64,000 nucleotides of DNA from Mobula hypostoma. Taxonomy: Eukaryota. Positions within the stretch are counted from its first letter, which is position 1; each line of letters starts with the position of its first letter. The position numbers and the translations under genes are program-made. Under the pieces are notes generated by a model. It searched no databases, was not told the DNA's origin, and saw nothing but the letters and a program-made list of their open reading frames with translations. This document shows positions 1 through 62,649 of this stretch, piece after piece. Location of the stretch: NCBI RefSeq assembly GCF_963921235.1, contig NC_086097.1, forward strand, positions 99,078,001 to 99,142,000, read 5' to 3'.

Positions 1-3000
1 GCGCGTGTACAGAGGGAGTGAGACAGGTGAAGGTATGCAGCGCGTGGACAGAGGGAGTGAGACAGGTGAAGGTATACAGCGCGTGGACAGAGAAAGTGAG
101 ACAGGTGAAGGTATGCAACGCGTGGACAGAGGAAGTGAGACAGGTGAAGGTATGCAGCGCGTGGACAGAGGGAGTGAGACAGGTGAAGGTATGCAGCGCG
201 TGGACAGAGGAGGTGAGACAGGTGAAGGTATGCAGCGCGTGGACAGAGGGAGTGAGACAGGTGAAGGTATGCAGCGCGTGCACAGAGGAAGTGAGGCAGG
301 TGAAGGTATTCAGCGCGTGGACAGGAGGAGAATGAGACAGGTGAAGGTATGCAGCGTGTGGACAGAGGGAGTGAGACAGGTGAAGGTATGCAGTGCGTGG
401 ACAGAGGAAGTGAGACAGGTGAAGGTATGCAGCGCTTGGACAGAAGAAGTGAGACAGGTGAAGGTATACACCGCGTGGACTGGAGGAGAATGAGACAGGT
501 GAAGGTATGCAGCGAGTGGACGGGAGGAGAATGAGACAGGTGAAGGTATGCAGTGCATGGACAGAGGAAGTGAGACAGGTGAAGGTATGCAGCGCGTGGA
601 CAGGAGGAGAATGAGACAGGTGAAGGTATGCAGCGCGTGGACAGGAGGAGAATTTGACAGGTGAAGGTATGCAGTGCGTGGACAGAGGAAGTGAGACAGG
701 TGAAGGTATACACCGCGTGGACAGGAGAAGAATGAGACAGGTGAAGGTATGCAGCGCGTGGACAGGAGGAGAATGAGACAGGTGAAGGTATGCAGCGCGT
801 GCACAGAGGAAGTGAGTCAGGTGATGGTATGCAGCGCATGGACAGGAGGAGAATGAGACAGGTGAAAGGTATGCAGCGCGTGGACAGGAGCAGAATGAGA
901 CAGGTGAAGGTATGCAGCGCGTGGACAGGAGGAGAATTAGACAGCTGAAGGTATGCAGCGAGTGGACAGAGGAAGTGAGACAGGTGAAGGTATGCAGCGC
1001 GTGGACAGAGGAAGTGAGACAGGTGAAGGTATGCAGCGCATGGAAAGAGGAAGTGAGGCAGGTGAAGGTATGCAGCGCGTGGACAGGGGAAGTGAGACAG
1101 GTGAAGGTATGCAGCGCGTGGACAGAGTAAGTGAGACAGGTGAAGGTATACAGCACGTGGACGGAGGAAGTGAGACAGGTGAAGGTATGCAGCACGTGGA
1201 CAGGAGGAGAATGAGACAGGTGAAGGTATACACTGCGTGGACAGGAGGAGAATGAGACAGGTGAAGGTATGCAGCGCGTGGACAGGAGGAGAATGAGACA
1301 GGTGAAGGTATGTAGCGCGTGGACAGAGGAAGTGAGACAGGTGAAGGTATGCAGCGCGTGTACAGAGGGAGAGAGACAGGTGAAGGTATGCAGCGCGTAG
1401 ACAGAGGGAGTGAGACAGGTGAAGGTATGCAGCGCGTGGACAGAGGGAGTGAGACAGGTGAAGGTATGCAACGCGTGGACAGAGGAAGTGAGACAGGTGT
1501 AGGTATGCAGCGCGTGGACAGGAGTAGACTGAGACAGGTGAAGGTATGCAGCGCGTGCACAGAGGAAGTGAGACAGGTGAAGGTATGCAGCGCTTGGACA
1601 GGAGGAGAATGAGACAGGTGAAGGTATGCAGCACGTGGACAGAGGAAGTGAGACAGTTGAAGGAATGCAGCGCGTGGACAGAGGAACTGAGACAGGTGAA
1701 GCTTGGCAGCGCGTGGACAGGAGGAGAATGAGACAGGTGAAGGTATGCAGCACGTGGACAGAGGAAGTGAGACAGGTGAACGTATGCAGCGCGTGGACAG
1801 GAGGAGAATGAGACAGGTGAAGGTATGCAGCGCGTGGACAGAGGAAGTGAGACAGGTGAAGGTATGCAGCACGTGGACAGAGAAAGTGAGACAGGTGAAG
1901 GTATGCAGCGCCTGGAGAGGAGGAGAATGAGACAGGTGAAGATATGCAGCGTGTGGACAGAGGGAGTGAGACAGGTGAAGGTATGCAGAGCGTGGACAGT
2001 GGAAGTGAGACAGGTGAAGGTATGCAGCGCATGGACAGGAGGAGAATGAGACAGGTGAAGGTATACAGCGCGTGAACAGGAGGAGAATGAGACAGGTGAA
2101 GGTATGCAGCGCGTGGACAGAGGAAGTGAGACAGGTGAAGGTATGCAGCGCGTGGACAGAGGAAGTGAGACAGGTGAAGGTATGCAGTGCGTGGACAGAA
2201 GAAGTGAGACAGGTGAAGGTATACACCGCATGGACAGGAGGAGAATGAGACAGGTGAAGGTATGCAGCGCGTGGACAGGAGGAGAATGAGACAGGTGAAG
2301 GTATGCAGCACGTGGACAGAGGAAGTGAGACAGGTGAAGGTATGCAGCGCGTGGACAGAGGGAGTGAGACAGGTGAAGGTATGCAGCGCGTGGACAGAGG
2401 GAGTGAGACAGGTGAAGGTATGCAGCGCATGGACAGAGGGAGTGAGACAGGTGAAGGTATGCAGCGTGTGGACAGGAGGAGAATAAGACAGGTGAAGGTA
2501 TGCAGCGCGTGCACAGAGGAACTAAGTCAGGTGAAGGTATGCAGCGCGTGGACAGGAGGAGAATGAGACAGGTGAAGGTATGCAGCGCGTGTACAGAGGG
2601 AGTGAGACAGGTGAAGGTATGCAGCGCGTGGACAGAGGGAGTGAGACAGGTGAAGGTATACAGCGCGTGGACAGAGAAAGTGAGACAGGTGAAGGTATGC
2701 AACGCGTGGACAGAGGAAGTGAGACAGGTGAAGGTATGCAGCGCGTGGACAGAGGGAGTGAGACAGGTGAAGGTATGCAGCGCGTGGACAGAGGAGGTGA
2801 GACAGGTGAAGGTATGCAGCGCGTGGACAGAGGGAGTGAGACAGGTGAAGGTATGCAGCGCGTGCACAGAGGAAGTGAGGCAGGTGAAGGTATTCAGCGC
2901 GTGGACAGGAGGAGAATAAGACAGGTGAAGGTATGCAGCGTGTGGACAGAGGGAGTGAGACAGGTGAAGGTATGCAGTGCGTGGACAGAGGAAGTGAGAC

Positions 3001-6000
3001 AGGTGAAGGTATGCAGCGCTTGGACAGAAGAAGTGAGACAGGTGAAGGTATACACCGCGTGGACTGGAGGAGAATGAGACAGGTGAAGGTATGCAGCGAG
3101 TGGACGGGAGGAGAATGAGACAGGTGAAGGTATGCAGTGCATGGACAGAGGAAGTGAGACAGGTGAAGGTATGCAGCGCGTGGACAGGAGGAGAATGAGA
3201 CAGGTGAAGGTATGCAGCGCGTGGACAGGAGGAGAATTTGACAGGTGAAGGTATGCAGTGCGTGGACAGAGGAAGTGAGACAGGTGAAGGTATACACCGC
3301 GTGGACAGGAGAAGAATGAGACAGGTGAAGGTATGCAGCGCGTGGACAGGAGGAGAATGAGACAGGTGAAGGTATGCAGCGCGTGCACAGAGGAAGTGAG
3401 TCAGGTGATGGTATGCAGCGCATGGACAGGAGGAGAATGAGACAGGTGAAAGGTATGCAGCGCGTGGACAGGAGCAGAATGAGACAGGTGAAGGTATGCA
3501 GCGCGTGGACAGGAGGAGAATTAGACAGCTGAAGGTATGCAGCGAGTGGACAGAGGAAGTGAGACAGGTGAAGGTATGCAGCGCGTGGACAGAGGAAGTG
3601 AGACAGGTGAAGGTATGCAGCGCATGGAAAGAGGAAGTGAGGCAGGTGAAGGTATGCAGCGCGTGTACAGAGGGAGAGAGACAGGTGAAGGTATGCAGCG
3701 CGTAGACAGAGGGAGTGAGACAGGTGAAGGTATGCAGCGCGTGGACAGAGGGAGTGAGACAGGTGAAGGTATGCAACGCGTGGACAGAGGAAGTGAGACA
3801 GGTGTAGGTATGCAGCGCGTGGACAGGAGTAGACTGAGACAGGTGAAGGTATGCAGCGCGTGCACAGAGGAAGTGAGACAGGTGAAGGTATGCAGCGCTT
3901 GGACAGGAGGAGAATGAGACAGGTGAAGGTATGCAGCACGTGGACAGAGGTAGTGAGACAGTTGAAGGAATGCAGCGCGTGGACAGAGGAACTGAGACAG
4001 GTGAAGCTTGGCAGCGCGTGGACAGGAGGAGAATGAGACAGGTGAAGGTATGCAGCACGTGGACAGAGGAAGTGAGACAGGTGAACGTATGCAGCGCGTG
4101 GACAGGAGGAGAATGAGACAGGTGAAGGTATGCAGCGCGTGGACAGAGGAAGTGAGACAGGTGAAGGTATGCAGCGCGTGGAGAGAGGAAGTGAGACAGG
4201 TGAAGGTATGCAGTGCGTGGACAGAGGAAGTGAGACAGGTGAAGGTATGCAGTGCGTGGACAGAGGGAGTGAGACAGGTGAAGGTATGCAGCGCGTGGAC
4301 AGAGGAAGTGAGACAGGTGAAGGTATGCAGCGCGTGGAGAGAGGAAGTGAGACAGGTGAAGGTATGCAGTGCCTGGACAGAGGAAGTGAGACAGGTGAAG
4401 GTATGCAGTGCGTGGACAGAGGAAGTGAGACAGGTGAAGGTATGCAGCGCGTGGACAGAGGAAGTGAGACAGGTGAAGGTATGCAGTGCGTGGACAGAGG
4501 AGGTGAGACAGGTGAAGGTACGCAGCGCGTGGAGAGAGGGAGTGAGACAGGTGAAGGTATGCAGCACGTGGACAGGAGGAGAATGAGACAGGTGAAGGTA
4601 TGCAGCGCGTGGACAGAGGAAGTGAGACAGGTGAAGGTATGCAGCGCGTGGACAGAGAAAGTGAGACAGGTGAAGGTATGCAGCGCATGGACAGGAGGAG
4701 AATGAGACAGGTGAAGGTATGCAGCGCGTGGACAGAGGAAGTGAGTCAGGTGAAGGTATGCAGCGCGTGGACAGGAGGAGAATGAGACAGGTGAAGGTAT
4801 GCAGCGCGTGCACAGAGGAAGTGAGACAGGTGAAGGTATACACCGCGTGGACAGGAGGAGAATGAGACAGGTGAAGGTATGCAGCGCGTGGACAGGAGGA
4901 GAATGAGACAGGTGAAGGTATGTAGCGCGTGGACAGAGGAAGTGAGACAGGTGAAGGTATGCAGCGCGTGTACAGAGGGAGTGAGACAGGTGAAGTTATG
5001 CAGCGCGTGGACAGAGGGAGTGAGACAGGTGAAGGTATGCAGCGCGTGGACAGAGGGAGTGAGACAGGTGAAGGAATGTAGCGCATGAACAGAGGAAGTG
5101 AGACAGGTGAAGGTATGCAGCGAGTGGACAGAGGAAGTGAGACAGGTGAAGGTATGCAGCGCGTGGACAGGAGGAGACTGAGACAGGTGAAGGTATGCAG
5201 CGCGTGGACAGGAGGAGAATGAGACAGGTGAAGGTATGTAGCGCGTGGACAGAGGAAGTGAGACAGGTGAAGGTATGCAGCGCGTGGACAGGAGGAGAAT
5301 GAGACAGGTGAAGGTATGCAGCGCGTGGACAGGAGGAGAATGAGACAGGTGAAGGTATGCAGCGCGTGGACAGAGGGAGTGAGACAGGTGAAGGTATGCA
5401 GCATGTGGACAGAGGAAGTGAGACAGGTGAAGGTATGCAGCGCGTGGACAGAGGGAGTGAGACAGGTGAAGGTATGCAGCGCGTGGACAGAGGGAGTGAG
5501 ACAGGTGAAGGTATGCAGCGCGTGTACAGAGGGAGTGAGACAGGTGAAGGTATGCAGCGTGTGGACAGGAGGAGAATAAGACAGGTGAAGGTATGCAGCG
5601 CGTGGACAGGAGGAGCATGAGACAGGTGAAGGTATGCAGGGCGTGGACAGAGGGAGTGAGACAGGTGAAGGTATACAGCGCGTGGACAGAGGAAGTGAGA
5701 CAGGTGAAGGTATGCAGCGCGTGGACAGAGGGAGTGAGACAGGTGAAGGTATGCAGCGCGTGGACAGAGGAGGTGAGACAGGTGAAGGTATGCAGCGAGT
5801 GGACAGAGGGAGTGAGACAGGTGAAGGTATGCAGCGCGTGCACAGAGGAAGTGAGGCAGGTGAAGGTATGCAGCGCGTGGACAGGAGGAGAATGAGACAG
5901 GTGAAGGTGTGCAACGCGTGGACAAAGGAAGCGAGACAGGTGAAGGTATGCAGCGCGTGGACATAGGAAGTGAGACAGTTGAAGGTATGCAGCGCCTGGA

Positions 6001-9000
6001 CAGGAGGAGAATGAGACAGGTGAAGGTATGCAGCGTGTGGACAGAGGGAGTGAGACAGGTGAAGGTATGCAGTGCGTGGACAGTGGAAGTGAGACAGGTG
6101 AAGGTATGCAGCGCATGGACAGGAGGAGAATGAGACAGGTGAAGGTATACAGCGCGTGAACAGGAGGAGAATGAGACAGGTGAAGGCATGCAGCGCGTGG
6201 TCAGAGGAAGTGAGACAGGTGAAGGTATGCAGCGCGTGGACAGAGGAAGTGAGACAGGTGAAGGTATGCAGCGCGTGGACAGAAGAAGTGAGACAGGTGA
6301 AGGTATACACCGCGTGGACTGGAGGAGAATGAGACAGGTGAAGGTATGCAGCGAGTGGACAGGAGGAGAATGAGACAGGTGAAGGTATGCAGTGCATGGA
6401 CAGAGGAAGTGAGACAGGTGAAGTTATGCAGCGCGTGCACAGAGGAAGTGAGTCAGGTGAAGGTATGCAGCGTGTGGACAGGAGGAGAGTGAGACAGGTG
6501 AAGGTATGAAGCGCGTGGACAGAGGGAGTGAGACAGGTGAAGGTATGCAGCATGTGGACAGAGGAAGTGAGACAGGTGAAGGCATGCAGCGCGTGGACAG
6601 AGGTAGTGAGACAGGTGAAGGTATGCAGCGCGTGGACAGAGGGAGTGAGACAGGTGAAGGTATGCAGCGCGTGTACAGAGGGAGTGAGACAGGTGAAGGT
6701 ATGCAGCGTGTGGACAGGAGGAGAATAAGACAGGTGAAGGTATGCAGCGCGTGGACAGGAGGAGCACGAGACAGGTGAAGGTATGCAGGGCGTGGACAGA
6801 GGGAGTGAGACAGGTGAAGGTATACAGCGCGTGGACAGAGGAAGTGAGACAGGTGAAGGTATGCAGCGCGTGGACAGAGGGAGTGAGACAGGTGAAGGTA
6901 TGCAGCGCGTGGACAGAGGAGGTGAGACAGGTGAAGGTATGCAGCGAGTGGACAGAGGGAGTGAGACAGGTGAAGGTATGCAGCGCGTGCACAGAGGAAG
7001 TGAGGCAGGTGAAGGTATGCAGCGCGTGGACAGGAGGAGAATGAGACAGGTGAAGGTGTGCAGCACGTGGACAAAGGAAGCGAGACAGGTGAAGGTATGC
7101 AGCGCGTGGACATAGGAAGTGAGACAGTTGAAGGTATGCAGCGCCTGGACAGGAGTAGAATGAGACAGGTGAAGGTATGCCGCGTGTGGACAGAGGGAGT
7201 GAGACAGGTGAAGGTATGCAGTGCGTGGACAGTGGAAGTGAGACAGGTGAAGGTATGCAGCGCATGGACAGGAGGAGAATGAGACAGGTGAAGGTATACA
7301 GCGCGTGAACAGGAGGAGAATGAGACAGGTGAAGGCATGCAGCGCGTGGACAGAGGAAGTGAGACAGGTGAAGGTATGCAGCGCGTGGACAGAAGAAGTG
7401 AGACAGGTGAAGGTATACACCGCGTGGACTGGAGGAGAATGAGACAGGTGAAGGTATGCAGCGAGTGGACAGGAGGAGAATGAGACAGGTGAAGGTATGC
7501 AGCGAGTGGACAGGAGGAGAATGAGACAGGTGAAGGTATGCAGTGCATGGACAGAGGAAGTGAGACAGGTGAAGGTATGCAGCGCGTGGACAGGAGGAGA
7601 ATGAGACAGGAGAAGGTATGCAGCGCGTGGACAGGAGGAGAATGAGACAGGTGAAGGTATGCAGTGCGTGGACAAAGGAAGTGAGTCAGGTGAAGGTATG
7701 CAGCGCGTGGACAGAGGAAGTGAGACAGGTGAAGGTATGCAGCACGTGGACAGAGGAAATGAGACAGGTGAAGGTATGCAGCGCGTGGACAGAGGAAGTG
7801 AGACAGGTGAAGGTATGCAGCACGTGGACAGAGGAAATGAGACAGGTGAAGGTATGCAGCGCGTGGACAGAGGAAGTGAGACAGGTGAAGGTATGCAGCA
7901 CGTGGACAGAGGAAGTGAGACAGGTGAAGGTATGCAGCGAGTGGACAGAGGAAGTGAGACAGGTGAATGTATGCAGCGCGTGGACAGGAGGAGAATGAGA
8001 CAGGTGAAGGTATGCAGCACGCGGACAGGAGGAGAATGAGACAGGTGAAGGTATGTAGCGCGTGGACAGAGGAAGTGAGACAGGTGAAGGTATGCAGCGC
8101 GTGTACAGAGGGAGTGAGACAGGTGAAGGTATGCAGCGTGTGGACAGGGAAAGTGAGACAGGAGAAGGTATGCAGCGCGTGGACAGAGTAAGTGAGACAG
8201 GTGAAGGTATACAGCACGTGGACGTAGGAAGTGAGACAGGTGAAGGTATGCAGCACGTGCACAGGAGGAGAATGAGACAGGTGAAAGTATGCAGCGCGTG
8301 GACAGAGGAAGTGAGACAGTTGAAGGTATGCAGCGCGTGGACAGAGGAAGTGAGACAGGTGAAGGTATGCAGCGCGTGGACAGAGGAAATGAGACATTTG
8401 AAGGTATACACCGCGTGGACAGGAGGAGAATGAGACAGGTGAAGGTATGCAGCGCGTGGACAGGAGGAGAATGAGACAGGTGAAGGTATGTAGCGCGTGG
8501 ACAGAGGAAGTGAGACAGGTGAAGGTATGCAGCGCGTAGACAGAGGGAGTGAGACAGGTTAATGTATGCAGCGCGTGGACAGAGGGAGTGAGACAGGTGA
8601 AGGTATGCAACGCGTGGACAGAGGAAGTGAGACAGGTGTAGGTATGCAGCGCATGGACAGGAGGAGAATGAGACAGGTGAAGGTATACAGCGCGTGGACA
8701 GGAGGAGAATGAGACAGGTGAAGGTATGCAGCACGTGGACAGAGGAAGTGAGACAGGTGAAGGTATGCAGCGCGTGGACAGAGGGAGTGAGACAGGTGAA
8801 GGTATGCAGCGCGTGGACAGAGGGAGTGAGACAGGTGAAGGTATGCAACGCATGCACAGAGGGAGTGAGACAGGTGAAGGTATGCAGCGTGTGGACAGGA
8901 GGAGAATAAGACAGGTGAAGGTATGCAGCGCGTGCACAGAGGAACTAAGTCAGGTGAAGGTATGCAGCGCGTGGACAGGAGGAGCATGAGACAGGTGAAG

Positions 9001-12000
9001 GTATGCAGCGCGTGTACAGAGGGAGTGAGACAGGTGAAGGTATGCTGCGCGTGGACAGAGGGAGTGAGACAGGTGAAGGTATACAGCGCGTGGACAGAGG
9101 AAGTGAGACAGGTGAAGGTATGCAGCGCGTGGACAGAGGGAGTGAGACAGGTGAAGGTATGCAGCGCGTGGACAGAGGAGGTGAGACAGGTGAAGGTATG
9201 CAGCGCGTGGACAGAGGGAGTGAGACAGGTGAAGGTATGCAGCGCGTGCACAGAGGAAGTGAGGCAGGTGAAGGTATGCAGCACGTGGACAGGAGGAGAA
9301 TGAGACAGGTGAAGGTGTGCAGAGCGTGGACAAAGGAAGCGAGACAGGTGAAGGTATGCAGCGCGTGGACAGAGGAAGTGAGACAGGTGAAGGTATGCAG
9401 CGCCTGGACAGGAGGAGAATGAGACAGGTGAAGGTATGCAGCGTGTGGACAGAGGGAGTGAGACAGGTGAAGGTATGCAGTGCGTGGACAGTGGAAGTGA
9501 GACAGGTGAAGGTATGCAGCGCCTGGACAGGAGGAGAATGAGACAGGTGAAGGTATGCCGCGTGTGGACAGAGGGAGTGAGACAGGTGAAGGTATGCAGT
9601 GCGTGGACAGTGGAAGTGAGACAGGTGAAGGTATGCAGCGCATGGACAGGAGGAGAATGAGACAGGTGAAGGTATGCAGCGCGTGGACAGGAGGAGAATG
9701 AGACAGGTGAAGGTATGCAGTGCGTGGACAAAGGGAGTGAGTCAGGTGAAGGTATGCAGCGCGTGCACAGAGGAAGTGAGTCAGGTGAAGGTATGCAGCG
9801 CGTGGACAGGAGGAGAATGAGTCAGGTGAAGGTATGCAGCGCGTGGACAGGAGGAGAATGAGACAGGTGAAGGTATGCAGTGCATGGACAGAGGAAGTGA
9901 GACAGGGGAAGGTATGCAGCATGTGGACAGAGGAAATGAGACAGGTGAAGGTATGCAGCGCATGGACAGAGGAAGTGAGACAGGTGAAGGTATGCAGCAC
10001 GTGGACAGAGGAAGTTAGACAGGTGAAGGTATGCAGCGAGTGGACAGAGGAAGTGAGACAGGTGAATGTATGCAGCGCGTGGACAGGAGGAGAATGAGAC
10101 AGGTGAAGGTATGCAGCACGCGGACAGGAGGAGAATGAGACAGGTGAAGGTATGTAGCGCGTGGACAGAGGAAGTGAGACAGGTGAAGGTATGCAGCGCG
10201 TGTACAGAGGGAGTGAGACAGGTAAAGGTATGCAGCGCGTGGACAGAGGAAGTGAGACAGGTGAAGGTATGCAGCGCATGGAGAGAGGAAGTGAGGCAGG
10301 TGAAGGTATGCAGCGTGTGGACAGGGAATGTGAGACAGGTGAAGGAATGCAGCGCGTGGACAGAGTAAGTGAGACAGGTGAAGGTATACAGCACGTGGAC
10401 GGAGGAAGTGAGACAGGTGAAGGTATGCAGCACGTGCACAGGAGGAGAATGAGACAGGTGAAGGTATGCAGCGCGTGGACAGAGGAAGTGAGACAGTTGA
10501 AGGTATGCAGCGCGTGGACAGAGGAAGTTAGACAGGTGAAGGTATGCAGCGCGTGGACAGAGGAAATGAGACAGGTGAAGTTATACACCGCGTGGACAGG
10601 AGGAGAATGAGACAGGTGAAGGTATGCAGCGCGTGGACAGGAGGAGAATGAGACAGGTGAAGGTATGTAGCGCGTGGACAGAGGAAGTGAGACAGGTGAA
10701 GGTATACAGCGCGTGTACAGAGGGAGAGAGACAGGTGAAGGTATGCAGCGCGTAGACAGAGGGAGTGAGACAGGTGAAGGTATGCAGCGCGTGGACAGAG
10801 GGAGTGAGACAGGTGAAGGTATGCAACGCGTGGACAGAGGAAGTGAGACAGGTGTAGGTATGCAGCGCATGGACAGGAGGAGAATGAGACAGGTGAAGGT
10901 ATACAGCGCGTGGACAGGAGGAGAATGAGACAGGTGAAGGTATGCAGCACGTGGACAGAGGAAGTGAGACAGGTGAAGGTATGCAGCGCGTGGACAGAGG
11001 GAGTGAGACAGGTGAAGGTATGCAGCGCGTGGACAGAGGGAGTGAGACAGGTGAAGGTATGCAGCGCATGTACAGAGGGAGTGAGACAGGTGAAGGTATG
11101 CAGCGTGTGGACAGGAGGAGAATAAGACAGGTGAAGGTATGCAGCGCGTGCACAGAGGAACTAAGTCAGGTGAAGGTATGCAGCGCGTGGACAGGAGGAG
11201 CATGAGACAGGTGAAGGTATGCAGCGCGTGTACAGAGGGAGTGAGACAGGTGAAGGTATGCAGCGCGTGGACAGAGGGAGTGAGACAGGTGAAGGTATAC
11301 AGCACGTGGACAGAGGAAGTGAGACAGGTGAAGGTATGCAGCACGTGGACAGAGGGAGTGAGACAGGTGAAGGTATGCATCGCGTGGACAGGAGGAGAAT
11401 GAGACAGGTGAAGGTGCGCAGAGCGTGGACAAAGGAAGCGAGACAGGTGAAGGTATGCAGCGCGTGGACAGAGGAAGTGAGACAGGTGAAGGTATGCAGC
11501 GCCTGGACAGGAGGAGAATGAGACAGGTGAAGGTATGCAGCGTGTGGACAGAGGGAGTGAGACAGGTGAAGGTATGCAGCGCGTGTACAGAGGGAGAGAG
11601 ACAGGTGAAGGTATGCAGCGCGTAGACAGAGGGAGTGAGACAGGTGAAGGTATGCAGCGCGTGGACAGAGGGAGTGAGACAGGTGAAGGTATGCAACGCG
11701 TGGACAGAGGAAGTGAGACAGGTGTAGGTATGCAGCGCGTGGACAGGAGTAGACTGAGACAGGTGAAGGTATGCAGCGCTTGGACAGGAGGAGAATGAGA
11801 CAGGTGAAAGTATGCAGCACGTGGACAGAGGAAGTGAGTCAGGTGAAGGTATGCAGCGCGTGGACAGGAGGAGAATGAGACAGGTGAAGGTATGCAGCGC
11901 GTGGACAGGAGGAGAATGAGACAGGTGAAGGTATGTAGCGCGTGGACAGAGGAAGTGAGACAGGTGAAGGTATGCAGCGCGTGTACAGAGGGAGTGAGAC

Positions 12001-15000
12001 AGGTGAAGTTATGCAGCGCGTGGACAGAGGGAGTGAGACAGGTGAAGGTATGCAGCGCGTGGACAGAGGGAGTGAGACAGGTGAAGGAATGTAGCGCGTG
12101 AACAGAGGAAGTGAGACAGGTGAAGGTATGCAGCGAGTGGACAGAGGAAGTGAGACAGGTGAAGGTATGCAGCGCGTGGACAGGAGGAGAATGAGACAGG
12201 TGAAGGTATGCAGCGCGTGGACAGGAGGAGAATGAGACAGGTGAAGGTATGTAGCGCGTGGACAGAGGAAGTGAGACAGGTGAAGGTATGCAGCGCGTGG
12301 ACAGGAGGAGAATGAGACAGGTGAAGGTATGCAGCGCGTGGACAGGAGGAGAATGAGACAGGTGAAGGTATGCAGCGCGTGGACAGGAGGAGAATGAGAC
12401 AGGTGAAGGTATGCAGCGCGTGGACAGGAGGAGAATGAGACAGGTGAAGGTATGCAGCGCGTGGACAGAGGAAGTGAGACAGGTGAAGGTATGCAGCGCG
12501 TGTACAGAGGGAGTGAGACAGGTGAAGGTATGAAGTGCGTGGACAGAGGGAGTGAGACAGGTGAAGGTATGCAGCATGTGGACAGAGGAAGTGAGACAGG
12601 TGAAGGTATGCAGCGCGTGGACAGAGGGAGTGAGACAGGTGAAGGTATGCAGCGCGTGGACAGAGGGAGTGAGACATGTGAAGGTATGCAGCGCGTGTAC
12701 AGAGGGAGTGAGACAGGTGAAGGTATGCAGCGTGTGGACAGGAGGAGAATAAGACAGGTGAAGGTATGCAGCGCGTGGACAGGAGGAGCATGAGACAGGT
12801 GAAGGTATGCAGGGCGTGGACAGAGGGAGTGAGACAGGTGAAGGTATACAGCGCGTGGACAGAGGAAGTGAGACAGGTGAAGGTATGCAGCGCGTGGACA
12901 GAGGGAGTGAGACAGGTGAAGGTATGCAGCGCGTGGACAGAGGAGGTGAGACAGGTGAAGGTATGCAGCGAGTGGACAGAGGGAGTGAGACAGGTGAAGG
13001 TATGCAGCGCGTGCACAGAGGAAGTGAGGCAGGTGAAGGTATGCAGCGCGTGGACAGGAGGAGAATGAGACAGGTGAAGGTGTGCAACGCGTGGACAAAG
13101 GAAGCGAGACAGGTGAAGGTATGCAGCGCGTGGACATAGGAAGTGAGACAGTTGAAGGTATGCAGCGCCTGGACAGGAGGAGAATGAGACAGGTGAAGTT
13201 ATGCAGCGTGTGGACAGAGGGAGTGAGACAGGTGAAGGTATGCAGTGCGTGGACAGTGGAAGTGAGACAGGTGAAGGTATGCAGCGCATGGACAGGAGGA
13301 GAATGAGACAGGTGAAGGTATACAGCGCGTGAACAGGAGGAGAATGAGACAGGTGAAGGCATGCAGCGCGTGGTCAGAGGAAGTGAGACAGGTGAAGGGA
13401 TGCAGCGCGTGGACAGAGGAAGTGAGACAGGTGAAGGTATGCAGCGCGTGGACAGAAGAAGTGAGACAGGTGAAGGTATACACCGCGTGGACTGGAGGAG
13501 AATGAGACAGGTGAAGGTATGCAGCGAGTGGACAGGAGGAGAATGAGACAGGTGAAGGTATGCAGTGCATGGACAGAGGAAGTGAGACAGGTGAAGTTAT
13601 GCAGCGCGTGCACAGAGGAAGTGAGTCAGGTGAAGGTATGCAGCGTGTGGACAGGAGGAGAGTGAGACAGGTGAAGGTATGAAGCGCGTGGACAGAGGGA
13701 GTGAGACAGGTGAAGGTATGCAGCATGTGGACAGAGGAAGTGAGACAGGTGAAGGTATGCAGCGCGTGGACAGAGGGAGTGAGACAGGTGAAGGTATGCA
13801 GCGCGTGGACAGAGGGAGTGAGACAGGTGAAGGTATGCAGCGCGTGTACAGAGGGAGTGAGACAGGTGAAGGTATGCAGCGTGTGGACAGGAGGAGAATA
13901 AGACAGGTGAAGGTATGCAGCGCGTGGACAGGAGGAGCACGAGACAGGTGAAGGTATGCAGGGCGTGGACAGAGGGAGTGAGACAGGTGAAGGTATACAG
14001 CGCGTGGACAGAGGAAGTGAGACAGGTGAAGGTATGCAGCGCGTGGACAGAGGGAGTGAGACAGGTGAAGGTATGCAGCGCGTGGACAGAGGAGGTGAGA
14101 CAGGTGAAGGTATGCAGCGAGTGGACAGAGGGAGTGAGACAGGTGAAGGTATGCAGCGCGTGCACAGAGGAAGTGAGGCAGGTGAAGGTATGCAGCGCGT
14201 GGACAGGAGGAGAATGAGACAGGTGAAGGTGTGCAGCACGTGGACAAAGGAAGCGAGACAGGTGAAGGTATGCAGCGCGTGGACATAGGAAGTGAGACAG
14301 TTGAAGGTATGCAGCGCCTGGACAGGAGGAGAATGAGACAGGTGAAGGTATGCAGCGTGTGGACAGAAGGAGTGAGACAGGTGAAGGTATGCAGTGCGTG
14401 GACAGTGGAAGTGAGACAGGTGAAGGTATGCAGCGCATGGACAGGAGGAGAATGAGACAGGTGAAGGTATACAGCGCGTGAACAGGAGGAGAATGAGACA
14501 GGTGAAGGCATGCAGCGCGTGGTCAGAGGAAGTGAGACAGGTGAAGGTATGCAGCGCGTGGACAGAGGAAGTGAGACAGGTGAAGGTATGCAGCGCGTGG
14601 ACAGAAGAAGTGAGACAGGTGAAGGTATACACCGCGTGGACTGGAGGAGAATGAGACAGGTGAAGGTATGCAGCGAGTGGACAGGAGGAGAATGAGACAG
14701 GTGAAGGTATGCATTGCATGGACAGAGGAAGTGAGACAGGTGAAGTTATGCAGTGCGTGCACAGAGGAAGTGAGTCAGGTGAAGGTATGCAGCGCGTGGA
14801 CAGGAGGAGAATGAGACAGGAGAAGGTATGCAGCGCGTGGACAGGAGGAGAATGAGACAGGTGAAGGTATGCAGTGCGTGGACAAAGGAAGTGAGTCAGG
14901 TGAAGGTATGCAGCGCGTGGACAGAGGAAGTGAGACAGTGAAGGTATGCAGCACGTGGACAGAGGAAATGAGAGAGGTGAAGGTATGCAGCGCGTGGACA

Positions 15001-51000: not shown

Positions 51001-54000
51001 TGCACAGAGGAAGTGAGGCAGGTGAAGGTATGCAGCGCGTGGACAGGAGGAGAAATGCAGCGCGTGGACAGGAGGAGAATGAGATAGGTGAAGGTGTGCA
51101 GCGCGTGGACAAAGGAAGCGAGACAGGTGAAGGTATGCAGCGCGTGGACAGAGGAAGTGAGACAGGTGATGGTATGCAGCGTGTGGACAGATGGAGTGAG
51201 ACAGGTGAAGGTATGCAGTGCGTGGACAGTGGAAGTGAGACAGGTGAAGGTATGCAGCGCATGGACGGGAGGAGAATGAGACAGGTGAAGGTATACAGCG
51301 CGTGAACAGGAGGAGAATGAGACAGGTGAAGGTATGCAGCGTGTGGACAGGAGGAGAATGAGACAGGTGAAGGTATGCAGCGCGTGGACAGGAGGAGAAT
51401 GAGACAGGTGAAGGTATGTAGCGCGTGGACAGAGGAAGTGAGACAGGTGAAGGTATGCAGCGCGTGTACAGAGGGAGTGAGACAGGTGAAGGTATGCAGC
51501 GCGTGGACAGAGGGAGTGAGACAGGTGAAGGTATGCAACGCGTGGACAGAGGAAGTGAGACAGGTGAAGGTATGAAGCGCGTGGACAGAGGGAGTGAGAC
51601 AGGTGAAGGTATACACCGTGTGGACAGGAGGAGAATGAGACAGGTGAAGGTATGCAGCGCATGGACAGGAGGAGAATGAGACAGGTGAAGGTATGCAGCA
51701 CGTGGACAGAGGAAGTGAGACAGGTGAAGGTATGCAGCGCGTGGACAGAGGGAGTGAGACAGTTGAAGGTATGCAGCGCGTTGACAGAGGGAGTGAGACA
51801 GGTGAAGGTATGCAGCGCGTGGACAGAGGGAGTGAGTCAGGTGAAGGTATGCAGCGTGTGGACAGGAGGAGGATGAGACAGGTGAAGGTATGCAGCGCGT
51901 GCACAGAGGAACTAAGTCAGGTGAAGGTATGCAGCGCGTGGACAGGAGGAGAATGAGACAGGTGAAGGTATACAGCGCGTGAACAGGAGGACAATGAGAC
52001 AGGTGAAGGTATGCAGCGTGTGGACAGGAGGAGAATGAGACAGGTGAACGTATGCAGCGCGCGGACAGAGGAAGTGAGACAGGTGAAGGTATGCAGCGCG
52101 TGTACAGAGGGAGTGAGACAGGTGAAGGTATGCAGCGCGTGGACAGAGGGAGTGAGACAGGTGAAGGATGCAGCGCGCGGACAGAGGAAGTGAGACAGGT
52201 GAAGGTATGCAGCGCGTGTACAGAGGGAGTGAGACAGGTGAAGGTATGCAGCGCGTGGACAGAGGGAGTGAGACAGGTGAAGGTATGCAACGCGTGGACA
52301 GAGGAAGTGAGACAGGTGAAGGTATGAAGCGCGTGGACAGAGGGAGTGAGACAGTTGAAGGTATACACCGTGTGGACAGGAGGAGAATGAGACAGGTGAA
52401 GGTATGCAGCGCGTGGACAGGAGGAGAATGAGACAGGTGAAGGTATGCAGCACGTGGACAGAGGAAGTGAGACAGGTGAAGGTATGCAGCGCGTGGACAG
52501 AGGGAGTGAGACAGTTGAACGTATGCAGCGCGTGGACAGAGGGAGTGAGACAGGTGAAGGTATGCAGCGCGTGGACAGAGGGAGTGAGACAGGTGAAGGT
52601 ATGCAGCGTGTGGACAGGAGGAGAATGAGACAGGTGAAGGTATGCAGCGCGTGCACAGTGGAAGTGAGTCAGGTGAAGGTATGCAGCGCGTGGACAGGAT
52701 GAGAATCAGACAGGTGAAGGTATGCAGTGCGTGGACAGAGGAAGCGAGACAGGTGAAGGTATGTAGCGCGTGGACAGAGGAAGCGAGACAGGTGAAGGTA
52801 TGCAGCGAGTGGACAGCAGGAGAATGAGGCAGGTGAAGGTATGCAGTGCATGGACAGAGGAAGGGAGACAGGTGAAGGTATGCAGAGGGTGGACAGAGGG
52901 AGTGAGAGAGGTGAAGGTATACAGCGAGTGGGCAGCAGGAGAATAAGGCAGGTGAGGTGTGCAGCAAGTGGACAGAGGGCGTGAGACAGGTGAGGTTATG
53001 CAGCGAGTGGACAGGAGGAGAATGAGACAGGTGAAGGTATGCAGCGCGTGGACAGAGGAAGTGAGACAGGTGAAGGTATGCAGTGCGTGGACAGAGGAAG
53101 TGAGACAGGTGAAGGTATGCAGTGCGTGGACAGGAGGAGAATGAGACAGGTGAAGGTATGCAGTGCGTGGACAGAGGGAGTGAGACAGGTGAAGGTATGC
53201 AGCGCGTGGACAGAGGAAGTGAGACAGGTGAAGGTATGCAGCGCGTGGACAGAGGGAGTGAGAAAGGTGAAGGTATGCAGCGCGTGGACAGAGGGAGTGA
53301 GACAGTTGAAGGTATGCAGCTCGTAGACAGAGGAGGTGAGACAGGTGAAGGTATGCAGCGCGTGGACCGAGGGAGTGAGCAGCTGAAGGTATGCAGCGCA
53401 TGGACAGTAGGAGAATGAGACAGGTGATGGTATGCAGCATGTGGACAGAGGGAGTGAGACAGGTGAAGGTATGCAGCGAGTGTACAGGAGGAGAATGAGA
53501 CAGGTGAAGGTATGCAGCGCGTGGACAGGAGGAGAGTGAGACAGGTGAAGGAATGCAGCGCGTGGACAGAGGAAGTGAGACAGGTGAAGGTATGCAGCGC
53601 GTGGACAGGAGGAGAATGAGACAGGTGAAGGTATGCAGCACGTGGACAGAGGAAGTGAGACAGGTGAAGGTATGCAGCGAGTGGACAGAGGAAGTGAGAC
53701 AGGTGAAGGTATGCAGCGCGTGGACAGAGGAAATGAGACAGGTGAAGGTATGCAGCGCGTGGACAGAAGAAGTGAGACAGGTGAAGGTATGCAGCGCGTG
53801 CACAGAGGAAGTGAGTCAGGTGAAGATATGCAGCGCCTGGACAGGAGGAGAATGAGACAGGTGAAGGTATGTAGCGCGTGGATAGAGGATGTGAGACAGG
53901 TGAAGGTATGCAGCGTGTGGACAGAGGAAGTGAGTCAGGTAAGGGTATGCAGCGGGTGGACAGGAAGAGAATCAGACAGGTGAAGGTATGCAGCGCGTGG

Positions 54001-56748
54001 ACAGAGGAAGTGAGACAGGTGAAGGTATGCAGCACGTGGACAGAGGAAGTGAGACAGGTGAAGGTATGCAGCGCTTGGACAGGAGGAGAATGAGACAGGT
54101 GAAGGTATGCAGCGCGTGGACAGGAGGGGAATGAGACAGGTGAAGGTATGCAGCACGTGGACAGAGGAAGTGAGACAGGTGAAGGTATGCAGCGCTTGGA
54201 CAGGAGGAGAATGAGACAGGTGAAGGTATGCAGCGCGTGGACAGGAGGGGAATGAGACAGGTGAAGGTATGCAGCGCGTGGACAGAGAAAGTGAGACAGG
54301 TGAAGGTATACAGTGCGTGGACAGAGGAAGTGAGACAGGTGAAGGTATGCAGCACGTGAACAGAGGAAGTGAGACAGGTGAAGGTATACAGTGCGTGGAC
54401 AGAGGAAGTGAGACAGGTGAAGGTATGCAGCGCGTGGACAGAGGAAGTGAGACAGGTGAAGGTATGCAGCGCGTCGACAGAGGATGTGAGACAGGTGAAG
54501 GTATGCAGCGCGTGGACAGAGGAAGTGAGACAGGTGAAGGTATGCAGCGCATGGACAGTAGGAGAATGAGACAGGTGAAGGTATGCAGCGCGTGGACCGA
54601 GGGAGTGAGCAGCTGAAGGTATGCAGCGCATGGACAGTAGGAGAATGAGACAGGTGATGGTATGCAGCATGTGGACAGAGGGAGTGAGACAGGTGAAGGT
54701 ATGCAACGAGTGTACAGGAGGAGAATGAGACAGGTGAAGGTATGCAGCGCGTGGACAGGAGGAGAATGAGACAGGTGAAGGAATGCAGCGCCTGGACAGA
54801 GGAAGTGAGACAGGTGAAGGTATGCAGCGCGTGGACAGGAGGAGAATGAGACAGGTGAAGGTATGCAGTGCGTGGACAGAGGAAGTGAGACAGGTGAAGG
54901 TATGCAGCGAGTGGACAGAGGAAGTGAGACAGGTGAAGGTATGCAGCGCGTGGACAGAGGAAATGAGACAGGTGAAGGTGTGCAGCGCGTGGACAGATGA
55001 AGTGAGACAGGTGAAGGTATGCAGCGCGTGGACAGAGGAAATGAGACAGGTGAACGTATGCAGCGCGTGGACAGAAGAAGTGAGACAGGTGAAGGTATGC
55101 AGCGCGTGCACAGAGGAAGTGAGTCAGGTGAAGATATGCAGCGCGTGGACAGGAGGAGAATGAGACAGGTGAAGGTATGTAGCGCGTGGATAGAGGATGT
55201 GAGACAGGTGAAGGTATGCAGCGTGTGGACAGAGGAAGTGAGTCAGGTGAAGGTATGCAGCGGGTGGACAGGAGGAGAATCAGACAGGTGAAGGTATGCA
55301 GCGCGTGGACAGAGGAAGTGAGACAGGTGAAGGTATGCAGCACGTGGACAGAGGAAGTGAGACAGGTGAAGGTATGCAGCGCTTGGACAGGAGGAGAATG
55401 AGACAGGTGAAGGTATGCAGCGCGTGGACAGGAGGGGAATGAGACAGGTGAAGGTATGCAGCGCGTGGACAGAGAAAGTGAGACAGGTGAAGGTATGCAG
55501 CACGTGGACAAGAGGAGAATGAGACAGGTGAAGGTATGCAGCGCGTGGACAGGAGGAGAATGAGACAGGTGAAGGTATGCAGCGAGTGGACAGAGAAAGT
55601 GAGACAGGTGAAGGTATACAGTGCGTGGACAGAGGAAGTGAGACAGGTGAAGGTATGCAGCACGTGAACAGAGGAAGTGAGACAGGTGAAGGTATGCAGC
55701 GCGTAGACAGAGGAAGTGAGACAGTTGAAGGTATGCAGCGCGTCGACAGAGGATGTGAGACAGGTGAAGATATGCAGCGCGTGGACCGAGGAAGTGAGAC
55801 AGGTGAAGGTATACAGTGCGTGGACAGAGGAAGTGAGACAGGTGAAGGTATGCAGCGCGTCGACAGAGGATGTGAGAGAGGTGAAGGTATGCAGCGCGTG
55901 GACAGAGGAAGTGAGACAGGTGAAGGTATGCAGCGCATGGACAGTAGGAGAATGAGACAGGTGATGGTATGCAGCATGTCGACAGAGGGAGTGAGACAGG
56001 TGAAGGTATGCAGCGAGTGTACAGGAGGAGAATGAGACAGGTGAAGGTATGCAGCGCGTGGACAGAGGAAGTGAGACAGGTGAAGGTATGCAGCACGTGA
56101 ACAGAGGATGTGAGACAGGTGAAGGTATGCAGCGCGTGGACAGAGGAAGTGAGACAGGTGAAGGTATGCAGCGCGTCGACAGAGGATGTGAGACAGGTGA
56201 AGATATGCAGCGCGTGGACAGAGGAAGTGAGACAGGTGAAGGTATGCAGCGCGTGGACAGGAGGCGAACGAGACAGGTGAAGGTATGCAGCGCGTGGATA
56301 GGAGGAGAATGAGACAGGTGAAGGTATGCAGCGCGTGGATAGGAGGAGAATGAGACAGGTGAAGGTATACAGCGCGTGGACAGAGGAAGTGAGACAGGTG
56401 AAGGTATGCAGCACGTGGACAGAGGAAGTGAGACAGGTGAAGGTATGCAGCGCGTGGACAGGAGGAGAATGAGACAGGTGAAGGTATGCAGCGCGTGTAC
56501 AGGAGGAGAATGAGACAGGTGAAGGTATGCAGCGCTTGGACAGGAGGAGAATGAGACAGGTGAAGGTATGCAGCGCGTGGACAGAGGGAGTGAGACAGGT
56601 GAAGGTATGCAGCGCGTGGACAGGAGGAGAATGAGACAGATGAAGGTATGTCGCGAGTGGACAGAGGAAGTGAGACAGGTGAAGGTATGCAGCGTGTGGA
56701 CAGAGGATGTGAGACAGGTGAAGGTATGTAGCGGGTGGACAGAGGGAG
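1..56748. repeat. Giant tandem minisatellite array of 39-bp and 41-bp units (~1,400 copies), continuing beyond the left edge of the window
   Basis: Direct reading: core TGAGACAGGTGAAGGTATGCAGCGCGTGGACAG followed by AGGAAG, AGGGAG or GAGGAGAA, repeated head-to-tail in one orientation with no foreign insertion seen. The last unit ends ...GCGGGTGGACAGAGGGAG at ~56748. Copy number is estimated as length divided by ~39.6. Confidence 0.99.
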
Positions 56749-56859
56749 AGTGGTGGGATGGGTGGAATCAAGGCAGGCATGCTGTGGAACTGAGATCAAG
56801 CGGAGGGCAAATTCACGAGTATTGACGGAAGGAGGGGTAATATGGAAGGCAGTCATGAG

Positions 56860-57540
56860 GGGTGGAGATGAGAGTTAGAGTGACTAGGAATATGGGAAAG
56901 TGGGTGGTGTGTAAGGTCGTGGAGAGACGAGAAAGAGACAACGTGTGTGAGAGAAGGGGGAAGGAAATGGGGAGAGAGAAGGTGAGTGAAATAAGAGAGG
57001 GGGTAAGGAGTGGAGAGGGTGGAAGGGAGGGAGAGGGAAAGGTGAGGGAGAGGAGAAAGGAGAGGGAGGAAAGAGAGGGGGAAAGTGAAAGGGAACAAGA
57101 GGAAGAGGCAAGAACAAGCGTGTGATCGACGGAGAAGTGAGAAAGAAGGAAGGCAAATGGAGAAAGTGATTGAAATAGTGAGGACGAGGAGGTGAGGGAG
57201 GAAGCAAGAGGGAAGGGACTCCTGAGAGCAAGGGGGAAGAGTGTGGAATCAGTTAATGGCGGGGTGGAAGAGACAGGAAACAAGAAAGGGGTGGTGAGAG
57301 AGAGGAAATAGAGAGAGTGGGAGGCGAGGAGGATGAATGAGGGTGGCAAGTGAGGGGAAGGTAAGGGGGGAGTTGAGAAAAGGGGGTGTGAGGAGTTGAG
57401 AGAGGGGGAAGTGATATAAAGGGGAGGGGAGTTGAGAGGGTGGTGTGAGAGGGGAGTTGAGATATGGGGAAAGAAGAGAGGAGGAAGGCAATAAAGAGGA
57501 GAGGGGAAGGGAGGGGGTGAGAGAGGGGGAGGAGAGGGAG
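56860..57540. repeat. Purine-rich (GA-rich) low-complexity sequence
   Basis: The + strand is dominated by G/A, for example GAGAGGAGAAAGGAGAGGGAGGAAAGAGAGGGGG, with no fixed period. Confidence 0.8.
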
Positions 57541-58680
57541 AGAGAGTGGGGAGGGGAGGGGAGGTGAGGGAGAAAGTGGGGAGGGGAGGGGAGGTGAGGG
57601 AGAGAGTGGGGAGGGGAAGGGAGGTGGGGGAGAGAGTGGGGAGGGCAAGGGCGGTGGTGGAGAGAGTGGGGAGGGGAAGGGAGGTGGGGGAGAGAGTGGG
57701 GAGGGAAGGGGAGGTGGGAGAGTGAGTGGGGAGGGGAGGGGAGGTGGGAGTGAGAGTGGGGAGGGGAAGGGAGGTGGGAGAGAGAGTGGGGAGGGGAGGT
57801 GGGGGAGAGAGTGGGGAGGGGAGGGGAGGTGGGGGGAGAAGTGGGGAAGGGAAGGGAGGTGAGGGAGAGAGGGGTAGGGGAAGGGAGGTGGGGGGAGAGA
57901 GGGGGGAGGGGAAGGGAGGTGGGGGGAGAGAGGGGGGAGGGGAAGGGTGAGGGGGGAGTGGGGAGGGGAAGGGAGGTGGGGGGAGAGAGGGGAAGGGGAA
58001 CGGAGGTGGGGGGAGAGAGGGGGAGGGGAAGGGTGAGGGGGGAGTGGGGAGGGGAAGGGAGGTGGGGGAGAGAGTGGGGAGAGGAAAGGTGGGAGAGAGA
58101 GTGGGGTGGGGAGGTGGGGAGAGAGTGGGGAAGGGAAGGGAGGTGGGAGAGAGAGTGGGGAGGGGAGGTGGGGGAGAGAGTGGGGAGGGGAGGGGAGGTG
58201 GGGGAGAGAGTGGGGAGGGGAAGGGAGGTGGGGGGAGATAGTGGGGAGGGGAAGGGAGGTGGGGGGAGAGAGTGGGGAGGGGAAGGGTGAGGGGGAGTGG
58301 GGAGGGGAGGGGAGGTGGGGGGAGAGAGTGGGGAGGGGAGGGGAGGTGGGGGAGAGAGTGGGGAGGGGAGGGGAGGTGGGGGAGAGAGTGGGGAGGGGAA
58401 GGGAGGTGGGGGGAGATAGTGGGGAGGGGAAGGGAGGTGGGGGGAGAGAGTGGGGAGGGGAAGGGTGAGGGGGAGTGGGGAGGGGAGGGGAGGTGGGGGG
58501 AGAGAGTGGGGAGCGGAGGGGAGGTGGGGGAGAGAGTGGGGAGGGGAGGGGAGGTGGGGGGAGAGTGGGGAGGGGAGGGGAGGGGAGGTGTGGGGAGGGG
58601 AAGGGAGGTGAGGGAGAGAGTGGGGAGGGGAAGGGAGGTGAGGGAGAGAGTGGGGAGGGGAAGGGAGGGGGGAGAGTAGG
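57540..58680. repeat. G-rich ~30-bp degenerate tandem repeat (GAGAGAGTGGGGAGGGGAAGGGAGGTGGGG)n with G-quadruplex/H-DNA potential
   Basis: Recurrent 25-32 bp unit with several runs of 3-7 G per unit and almost no C on the + strand over ~1.1 kb. Confidence 0.9.
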
Positions 58681-58774
58681 GAAAGATTAAGGTGATGATT
58701 AGTAAAACCAGGCACCCAAGTTGATGGGCGTGGAAACATTAGGAGGTTAGAGGACCAAGAGGGCAAATGATAAT

Positions 58775-58776
<2 letters not shown>

Positions 58777-58818
<42 letters not shown>
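58777..58818 (+). repeat. (AC)21 microsatellite
   Basis: Direct reading. Confidence 0.97.
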
Positions 58819-58820
<2 letters not shown>

Positions 58821-59293
58821 GGGGTGATTGATAAGTTTGTGGTCTAAGGGAGAAGGAGTCAATTTTAGAAAACCTAGCACATTTATTTTTCCTACATTTA
58901 CACACTTAGTCCAGCGGTCGTGGAGCATACGGATCCTTTCTTTGTAGAAGTCGGCGTCTTGGACCTCCAGAAGTGGTCCACAGCAGGGGTGGTTGGTAAG
59001 TTCGTGTCCTAAGGTAGAAGGAGATGAGGAGAAACTTCAAACTTTCTGCATTTTCACTCAAAGAGTTGAACTGCTCGTGCATGTAACGAGAGCTGTATAA
59101 CTCATCTCCTTCTACCTTAGGCCATAAACTTATCAATCACCCCTGATGTGGACCACTTCTACAAAGAAGGGATCCGTATGCTCCACGACTGCTGGACTAA
59201 GTGTGTACATGTAGGAGGACAATGTTGAAAAATAAATGTGCTAGGTTTTCTAAAATTAACTCCGTCTTCCTTAGGCCATGAACTTATCAATCA

Positions 59294-59295
<2 letters not shown>

Positions 59296-59341
<46 letters not shown>
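59296..59341 (+). repeat. (GT)23 microsatellite, followed by (AG)8 at 59352-59367
   Basis: Direct reading. Confidence 0.97.
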
Positions 59342-59343
<2 letters not shown>

Positions 59344-59525
59344 CTATAGATAGAGAGAGAGAGAGAGCGGGAGAACAGCAGAAGTGGAAGATGGATTGGA
59401 GGAACAACAAAAGGGAAAAAAAAGGACTGTATTTAAACAAAGTTTGGGAATTTCAAGAAGAAGAATGAAATGGGGAAAGAAAATCTAGAGAAAGAGGAAA
59501 GTGAAAGATTGCTGAATGTTCTCAC

Positions 59526-59729
59526 CTCTCTGGAGGTGGTTGGCTCCATCTGCAGGATATCATGACCTAAGCTGAGCAGAAGTCTGAAAGTCTCTTCACG
59601 AGCGTCAATTTCCGCCCGGAGCTGCTGGTGCTGGTTTAGTTTTAAATCAGTCATGGAGCTGTTCCGGGTGGTCTCCTCCACTTTCATCTCCCTCATCAAA
59701 CCGGTCGACCAGGAGAAGTAATCCCGCAC
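59526..59729 (-). CDS. SPTBN5: Spectrin beta chain non-erythrocytic 5-like, internal exon (68 aa, phase 0/0)
   Basis: Acceptor GTGTCTCCTAG| and donor |GTGAGA. 204 bp translate to VRDYFSWSTGLMREMKVEETTRNSSMTDLKLNQHQQLRAEIDAREETFRLLLSLGHDILQMEPTTSRE, a spectrin repeat (helix A Trp, HQxLxAEIxARE). It resembles the SPTBN5 segment VRDYxSW...HQxLRAE as I recall it; no database search was run. Confidence 0.9.
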
Positions 59730-59905
59730 CTAGGAGACACAAAGTCCAAAGAGAAAGAAAGCTTGATAACTATTTCTCTGACAAGAAATCATTCTTTTCC
59801 CAAGGTGACTTAGAAAATACTTATTTTGTGCAATCACATTTCTAGATCAGAGAAGTGCAGCAGATGGCTCAAATTTCTGCTGAACTGACTTGATGCAGAG
59901 TTTAT

Positions 59906-60057
59906 TCAGCTTGTCCTGTGCTGAAACACAAGCCATTATATATCAGTAACACTCAAATAACTGAGATTAGAACCTGAATCAGCTTGTCCTGTGCTGAAAC
60001 ACAAGCCATTATAATCAGTAACACTCAAATAACTGAGATTAGAATCTGAATCAGCTT
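59906..60057 (+). repeat. 72-73 bp tandem duplication
   Basis: TCAGCTTGTCCTGTGCTGAAACACAAGCCATTATA...GAGATTAGAA(C/T)CTGAA starts at 59906 and at 59979; a third TCAGCTT lies at 60051. Confidence 0.93.
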
Positions 60058-61225: not shown

Positions 61226-61723
61226 ATGATGGTGTCAAGTTATAGTCACACGGTGCATGAGTTAAACTTTTCAGAGATGTTATTCGGCTATTTATATATG
61301 AGATTGCCCTGGAACTGCTGTACAATTTGTCCTCCTGCTCTTTCTCAGAGTTTTATCAATTTCATCCTATCCCCACCCCCAGATCATAACCCCAACCCCA
61401 TGTATTCATCCCAGATAGAGCTGCTGCCTTATCAAAGGTGCCATTCCCTAGATAAACTGGGACCCTGTCTGCCTTCTCTGATGGACAGATTTCAAGAGGA
61501 GCAGGCAATCTCTACCTATTCCCTGGACATTCTCAAGCCATGAAACTACATCATTGCTTCATTGTTCATTGGCGTTTGCAAGCTTCTACCATGTACAAAG
61601 TGGCAGGTACTCTTGTTTTAATATACTTCCAATGTGACCACACCTCATAAAAACAAATCGCACTGCATTAATATTAATCTTGTTATTTTCCACTTCTGCA
61701 ACTTCCACTCCAGTCGTACTCAC

Positions 61724-61903
61724 CTGTACCAGGAACCGTTGGATCTTACAGGCCTTCTCCAGGGATTCCCTTCGCTGGTCCACTTTACTCCTGAGACTCT
61801 CCCAGTTCTCCACCACTGCCGTCTGCTTGGCCTGCAGGACTGCGCTCTGCTCTGTCGTGCACCTGTGCAGTACCCCATCAGCTGCATCCAGCAGTTCCTG
61901 CAT
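61724..61903 (-). CDS. SPTBN5: Spectrin beta chain non-erythrocytic 5-like, internal exon (60 aa, phase 0/0)
   Basis: Acceptor TTTCCCTGTGATCTCAG| and donor |GTGAGT. 180 bp translate to MQELLDAADGVLHRCTTEQSAVLQAKQTAVVENWESLRSKVDQRRESLEKACKIQRFLVQ (spectrin helix C, WxxLxxxxxxRRxxL). It splices in frame to VRDYFSW of the next exon. Confidence 0.9.
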
Positions 61904-62432: not shown

Positions 62433-62649
62433 AACTTCCTAACAATTGTTCATTTTCACTGTCGTCTGTTTCTGACATCCCCAAGCCTGGGTGCTTGAAA
62501 CCTCAGTGAGCAGAAAAGTGTCTGAACTGTCTTACTGCTTATTTCTTGCCAACTACCCGTGACAAAAATCACAGCTTTTTGAACAAAAACACATGCAACT
62601 GATGCTATTTAAAAGCTTTTGCTCTAAGCACAGTGTAGTGTTCGATGGC

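Follow-up and report, generated by a model that had tools for sequence, protein, structure and literature searches.

We analysed a 64,000-nucleotide stretch of the genome of the ray Mobula hypostoma (contig NC_086097.1, positions 99,078,001 to 99,142,000, forward strand; hereafter the window), in which four exons of the spectrin gene SPTBN5 stand beside a very long tandem array. We conclude with good confidence that SPTBN5 is intact and spliced here, and that the array, of at least 56.7 kb, likely lies within one of its introns, likely has grown in place and is likely skipped by ordinary splicing. The features that carry this conclusion are the following, in window positions.

1-56748, no strand assigned: tandem array of 39-bp and 41-bp units (~2:1), with ~1,430 units in view and a continuation past the left edge.
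59520-59525, minus strand: GT donor of the long intron, in phase 0 and used in spliced contigs.
59526-59729, minus strand: SPTBN5 exon of 68 codons, 68/68 identical to the M. hypostoma protein model P0250 at residues 1984-2051.
61724-61903, minus strand: SPTBN5 exon of 60 codons, 60/60 identical.
63039-63149, minus strand: SPTBN5 exon of 37 codons, 37/37 identical.
63934-64000, minus strand: 3' portion of an SPTBN5 exon that continues past the window edge, with 22/22 residues as in the M. hypostoma model.

The array was returned by Tandem Repeats Finder (TRF) as a single row covering 1-56748, with a period of 39, 1432.5 copies and 88% matches. Of the 1,428 units into which it was parsed, 972 have 39 bp, 443 have 41 bp and the remaining 13 differ in length; the first parse gave 368 distinct unit pieces. 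It makes up 95.3% of positions 1-59525, and the 64-kb window contains no N letters. This length is a lower bound, as the array runs past the left window edge; the visible part of the intron measures 59.5 kb. We observed a constant orientation throughout, with a GC skew of +0.53 to +0.56 in each 2-kb bin up to 56 kb, and no array 12-mer had a reverse-complement partner within 1-59525. The unit mix was equally steady, 41-mers accounting for 22-36% in each 3-kb bin. On the gene strand the array is 74% pyrimidine, and its right end falls in register, inside a unit.

The exons identify the gene. All three complete exons (111, 180 and 204 bp) are multiples of three, the four exons are phase-0, and GT-AG introns of 784, 1135 and 1994 bp separate them. 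Together they match the M. hypostoma protein XP_062909505.1 (P0250; 4,091 aa) at 187/187 positions, over residues 1865-2051. Against SPTBN5 of other species the agreement was 183/187 for M. birostris, 173/187 for Hypanus sabinus and 146-147/187 for sharks. XP_062909505.1 runs on for 2,040 residues past the four exons and contains 2 CH domains, 29 Spectrin stretches and a PH domain. A homologous next exon was found at the same position in all the species examined, namely three rays, two skates and five other cartilaginous fishes; these protein counts leave out the unanchored P0252 and P0238. Judged by its sequence, the gene is the SPTBN5 ortholog proper, with the same exon order as annotated SPTBN5. 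A first-pass annotation of the same DNA had described four stop-free spectrin exons with these introns, and its coordinates were reproduced; it had called the gene SPTBN5-like, a label that is right as to the spectrin gene and that the 187/187 identity refines to SPTBN5 itself. Its further statements, that the donor at 59525 opens into more than 59 kb lacking another exon and that about 95% of this is one tandem array, agree with the searches reported here and with the TRF result.

Next, we looked at the use of this donor in RNA. Twenty-four sequencing runs matched 59400-62000; none is recorded as RNA, and a tool guessed 8 of them to be RNA. On 59375-59895 we aligned three of these 8 RNA-type runs (X9, X10 and X13) and the DNA run X1. 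X9 and X10 come from organism A and are 99+% alike, with no differing letters, while X13 comes from organism B and is 95-99% alike. The contigs of the three RNA-type runs cover 59524-59731 and have zero depth over 59375-59518; contigs show presence and not absence, and the zero depth in the first 145 intron bases is to be read in this light. Past donor 59525 all three carry an identical 30 letters; a manual reading of these, extended by the two letters in common with the donor, gives the first ten codons of the P0250 exon that comes next. On the next-exon side of the donor the contigs extend for 598, 199 and 176 letters. Hence in 3/3 RNA-type runs aligned, donor 59525 is joined in frame to the next SPTBN5 exon, as the proposed check for RNA junctions at 59526 had called for. 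In X9 and X10 the end of the 61724-61903 exon is likewise spliced to the acceptor at 59729. The DNA run X1 covers 59383-59895 without a break; it gives no independent support, since it may be the source of the assembly. Contig depths were 811, 7 and 26 and were not used to rank expression. A second X13 contig spans the acceptor region 59702-59751 and from 59751 on has letters that the window lacks; either the intron differs between the species or the contig carries an alternative upstream piece.

The next exon itself lies outside the window. A tblastn search with the bamboo shark next exon gave a best E of 1.8 against the window, and two full-length shark proteins found, left of 59526, only low-complexity matches inside the array, the best of them (E 0.007, 30% identity) to residues 3642-3764. 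Even with up to 3 mismatches allowed, the 30 post-donor contig letters matched nowhere in the window. Neither the splice signals nor the six reading frames of the spacer between array and donor showed anything spectrin-like, and thus no next exon appeared between 56750 and 59525, where its presence would have spoken against a giant intron. We also considered the array as coding sequence. Its gene strand has stop-free stretches of up to 1,807 codons, and no frame of the three has a stop in the consensus units; this candidate was rejected, as each 41-mer shifts the frame and the RNA contigs jump from the donor to the next exon.

We then assessed the splice and RNA signals within the array. On the gene strand there was no donor-like site at 5 or more of 7 consensus positions and only 6 at 4 of 7, compared to 2,596 and 3,318, respectively, on the opposite (plus) strand. 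AG dinucleotides occur at 2.0 per kb on the gene strand of the array, compared to 61-75 per kb in the three short introns. The same strand contains no AATAAA or ATTAAA and no recursive site (YAG-GT), and no inverted-repeat stem was found in the array. As the array lacks a strong donor, these hexamers, an AG-GT site and a stem, it is likely skipped by ordinary splicing. The gene strand has 93 YAG sites downstream of pyrimidine runs, and these cryptic acceptors should be unable to define an exon because no donor accompanies them. The predicted transcript is unstructured (z +1.15) and C-rich (skew -0.54), and C-rich transcripts form R-loops poorly. Each unit also carries two donor-like motifs on the plus strand, so that RNA from the gene strand contains numerous short complements to 5' splice sites; this complementarity is probably due to chance.

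These data suggest a simple course of events. The array would have expanded locally, by unequal exchange or by replication slippage copying blocks of 0.5-10 kb, and its methylated CpG sites would have decayed during the expansion. Polymerase II would read through it, and the visible part would cost about half an hour at the published rate of 45 min per 100 kb (PMC2773006). The array may be tolerated because its transcribed strand offers no usable donor or polyadenylation hexamer and its transcript would be poor at forming R-loops. A function of the array is neither needed nor indicated, and a neutral array is the most economical account. The first-pass annotation had raised transcription through a satellite-scale array as one of two possibilities. 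The spliced junction makes it the likely one, to the extent that the assembly, judged here from the internal structure of the array, is correct. No evidence was found here for a special expression programme, which it had cited for satellite-filled giant introns.

The internal structure was examined for signs of how the array grew. We observed nested block duplications of 0.5-3.3 kb at varied lags of 1.1-11 kb. Thirty-four near-identical blocks of at least 12 units were identified, and none of the 34 was mismatch-free at 500 bp or more. For example, block 27883-31132 recurs at a lag of 3250 with 5 mismatches, block 8871-11759 at a lag of 10019 with 12 mismatches, and block 13149-15802 at a lag of 2693 with 6 mismatches. 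With all later block copies removed, 33 kb of array is left. The sharing of variant units drops with distance, from a Jaccard index of 0.09-0.41 between adjacent 6-kb bins to 0.06 between the two ends. Transitions at CpG sites averaged 7.7% per site, compared to 1.3% for other transitions and 0.9% for transversions. Such a CpG transition excess is a signature of methylated DNA and not of read error; the decay points to methylation, which is not decisive as to a centromeric satellite, a class marked by CENP-A binding, local hypomethylation and very large arrays. The final 6 kb of the array has no large duplication and more one-off units. The source of the unit was sought in the DNA to the right of the array, and the last array units had no match there longer than 11 bp. 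No parent mobile element was identified for the unit. With its nested near-identical blocks, CpG decay and distinct edge, the array looks biological, and its structure fits growth in place.

Several points weigh against the conclusion that a real array of this size is spliced over. Later copies of blocks less than 1% diverged make up 595 of the 1,428 units (23.6 kb). Four directly tandem blocks differ by 0.15-0.7%. Joined haplotypes would leave the same picture. Variant sharing falls stepwise near 36 kb and 54 kb. The place of the array inside the SPTBN5 intron is likely and rests on the assembly, its far end and the acceptor lying outside the window. The RNA-type runs are three samples from two studies, other than the DNA sample, and their arrays may be shorter; moreover, the RNA status of X9, X10 and X13 is the guess of a tool. 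Lastly, variants that create an AG are not depleted in the array (18 of 20 possible ones were seen; permutation P 0.59), and there is no sign of selection on its sequence. The splice-silent orientation is a single observation and may be chance. The lack of depletion suggests that tolerance is due to the founding unit and its orientation, and not to ongoing selection.

The first alternative is an assembly artefact, in which the gene is intact and the true array is much shorter, having been joined to a larger array of the same family or built up from stacked haplotypes. Stacked haplotypes or a join within the array may be at work, and the near-identical tandem blocks of 1-3.3 kb (at 0.15-0.7%) and the stepwise drops in shared variants near 36 and 54 kb are what such an error could leave behind. 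However, not one block of 500 bp or more is free of mismatches, and 33 kb is left when later copies are set aside. The lags are nested and varied (1.1-11 kb), as in real repeat alleles of human CACNA1C (PMC11118589). The unit mix is steady along the array, and its CpG sites have decayed. We consider an artefact unlikely.

A broader proposal would make the array several times longer than seen, fixed in devil rays, and one of many ray intronic arrays kept only where they are read as a donor-free, pyrimidine-rich, C-skewed transcript; SPTBN5 would then be a vertebrate gene spliced over a satellite-scale intron that lacks recursive sites and repeat stems, its intron RNA coated by PTB-type proteins as by Heph in flies. 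Taken as a whole, this is distinctly unlikely.

It is also conceivable that the array is real and intronic and needs dedicated help, like the Drosophila Y-loop genes, with PTB-type proteins coating the intron RNA and thereby controlling the timing or tissue of SPTBN5 expression. The transcribed strand is indeed pyrimidine-rich and unstructured, and TCTC and CTCT occur on it at 31 and 16 per kb, respectively, compared to about 12 in the short introns. Recursive sites and stems, two aids discussed for large introns (PMC2773006), are both lacking in the array, and the PTB homolog Heph is needed for the processing of kl-5 in Drosophila (PMC6508621). However, what is seen of the intron falls far short of a megabase, human introns above 50 kb number 3,473 (PMC2773006), the spliced product was present in three samples of two species, and the array shows no selection signal. 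We regard such control as very unlikely. The last alternative, that the array marks a break truncating the gene mid-rod, as the first-pass annotation had also proposed, or that the exons belong to a dead partial copy, could appeal to the lack of a downstream exon within 59.5 kb, to one AATAAA in a fold-back element near the donor and to a stop met 30 codons into read-through past the donor, and is rejected for the species as hardly credible because 3/3 RNA-type runs splice in frame to the next exon and the full-length annotated protein, identical across the four exons, extends a further 2,040 residues to its PH domain.

Between the array and the donor, the intron contains three further elements.

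56749-57526, no strand assigned: GA-rich low-complexity intronic spacer.
57527-58676, no strand assigned: 30-bp G-rich minisatellite of 39 copies (TRF), unrelated to the main array.
58776-59342, no strand assigned: fold-back element with long inverted arms, flanked by (AC)n and (GT)n.

The 30-bp minisatellite has 32 G-quadruplex-type motifs on the template (plus) strand, and its gene strand is devoid of AG. The fold-back element, which carries the one AATAAA on the gene strand, has arms of 116, 62 and 60 bp with mirror-image (AC)21 and (GT)23 tracts at its borders, and lies 180 bases inside the long intron. We take it to be like a miniature inverted-repeat transposable element (MITE), seemingly two nested MITE-type copies. 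It could form a long hairpin close to the donor. No Rfam family was found in 54000-64000.

Some further observations concern the exons and the gene models. The donor after the 63039-63149 exon (63033-63038) is weak (GTTGAT), yet it agrees with the junction in the annotated protein. The 1994-bp intron contains a 72-bp tandem duplication at 59906-60057, with 97% matches, and a part at 60220-61250 that we take to resemble a decayed long interspersed nuclear element (LINE). The SPTBN5 models are 2,917 and 2,916 aa long in two skates and 3,306 aa in Hypanus (P0240, P0243 and P0251), compared to 4,090 aa in the mobulid models. Both skate models stop at the same point, 864 residues past the 59526-59729 exon, by an annotation break or as a shared short isoform.

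Among known systems, the first-pass annotation had pointed to the Y fertility genes of Drosophila. In the Y-loop genes kl-3 and kl-5, megabases of 5-bp satellites make up more than 99% of the locus, and transcription takes about 90 h (PMC6508621, PMC11207136). The kl introns hold AAGAC and AATAT repeats, and the Y-loop genes need Blanks and Heph (PMC6508621). The likeness is that a tandem repeat fills nearly the whole of an intron in a gene whose protein is very large and that the mRNA is spliced across it. Unlike in the Y-loop genes, however, the ray unit is 39/41 bp and not 5 bp, the visible length is in the tens of kb, and nothing points to a special factor; only the pyrimidine richness of the sequence hints at PTB-type binding. 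Given the megabases of simple satellite in the fly genes (PMC6508621), this parallel was overdrawn.

Ordinary large introns offer a second comparison. Human has 3,473 introns above 50 kb, chicken 853 and zebrafish 756, and recursive sites are reported not to be enriched in vertebrates (PMC2773006). Such introns hold interspersed short (SINE) and long (LINE) elements, with proposed stems (PMC2773006), whereas the ray array has one orientation and no inverted 12-mer partner. In the red stingray genome, many regions consist mostly of simple tandem repeats, and introns and intergenic DNA accumulate repeats alike (10.1101/2025.06.08.657570). Our literature search found no paper on the SPTBN5 array locus, and the main text of a mobulid genome preprint (10.64898/2026.10.27.761883) has no occurrence of spectrin or SPTBN5.

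The closer system is the variable number tandem repeat (VNTR) in intron 3 of human CACNA1C, which has a 30-bp unit, 158 variant units and Type 5 alleles of 13-61 kb; its common allele measures 5.7 kb, within a host intron that is long even without the repeat (PMC11118589). Both arrays consist of minisatellite-sized head-to-tail units with many variants and kilobase-scale internal duplications in a protein-coding host gene, and the ray array shares with the CACNA1C type the single orientation of its units and growth by kilobase duplication. Of the unique flanks of that type, the donor side and the spliced junction are seen in the ray, and the far flank falls outside the window. Unlike the CACNA1C repeat, the ray array is at least 56.7 kb long, fills 95% of the visible intron, has two unit lengths and adjoins introns of only 0.8-2 kb. 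Taken alone, it equals the upper range of the human case and would be of little surprise to a specialist. If the assembly holds, a vertebrate gene is spliced correctly over at least 57 kb of one repeat lacking the aids proposed for large introns, and the locus would be a clean natural test of how far an intron tolerates a pure repeat and of the role of orientation. In conclusion, the SPTBN5 array stands at the upper end of the size range known for giant intronic VNTRs, and possibly beyond it.

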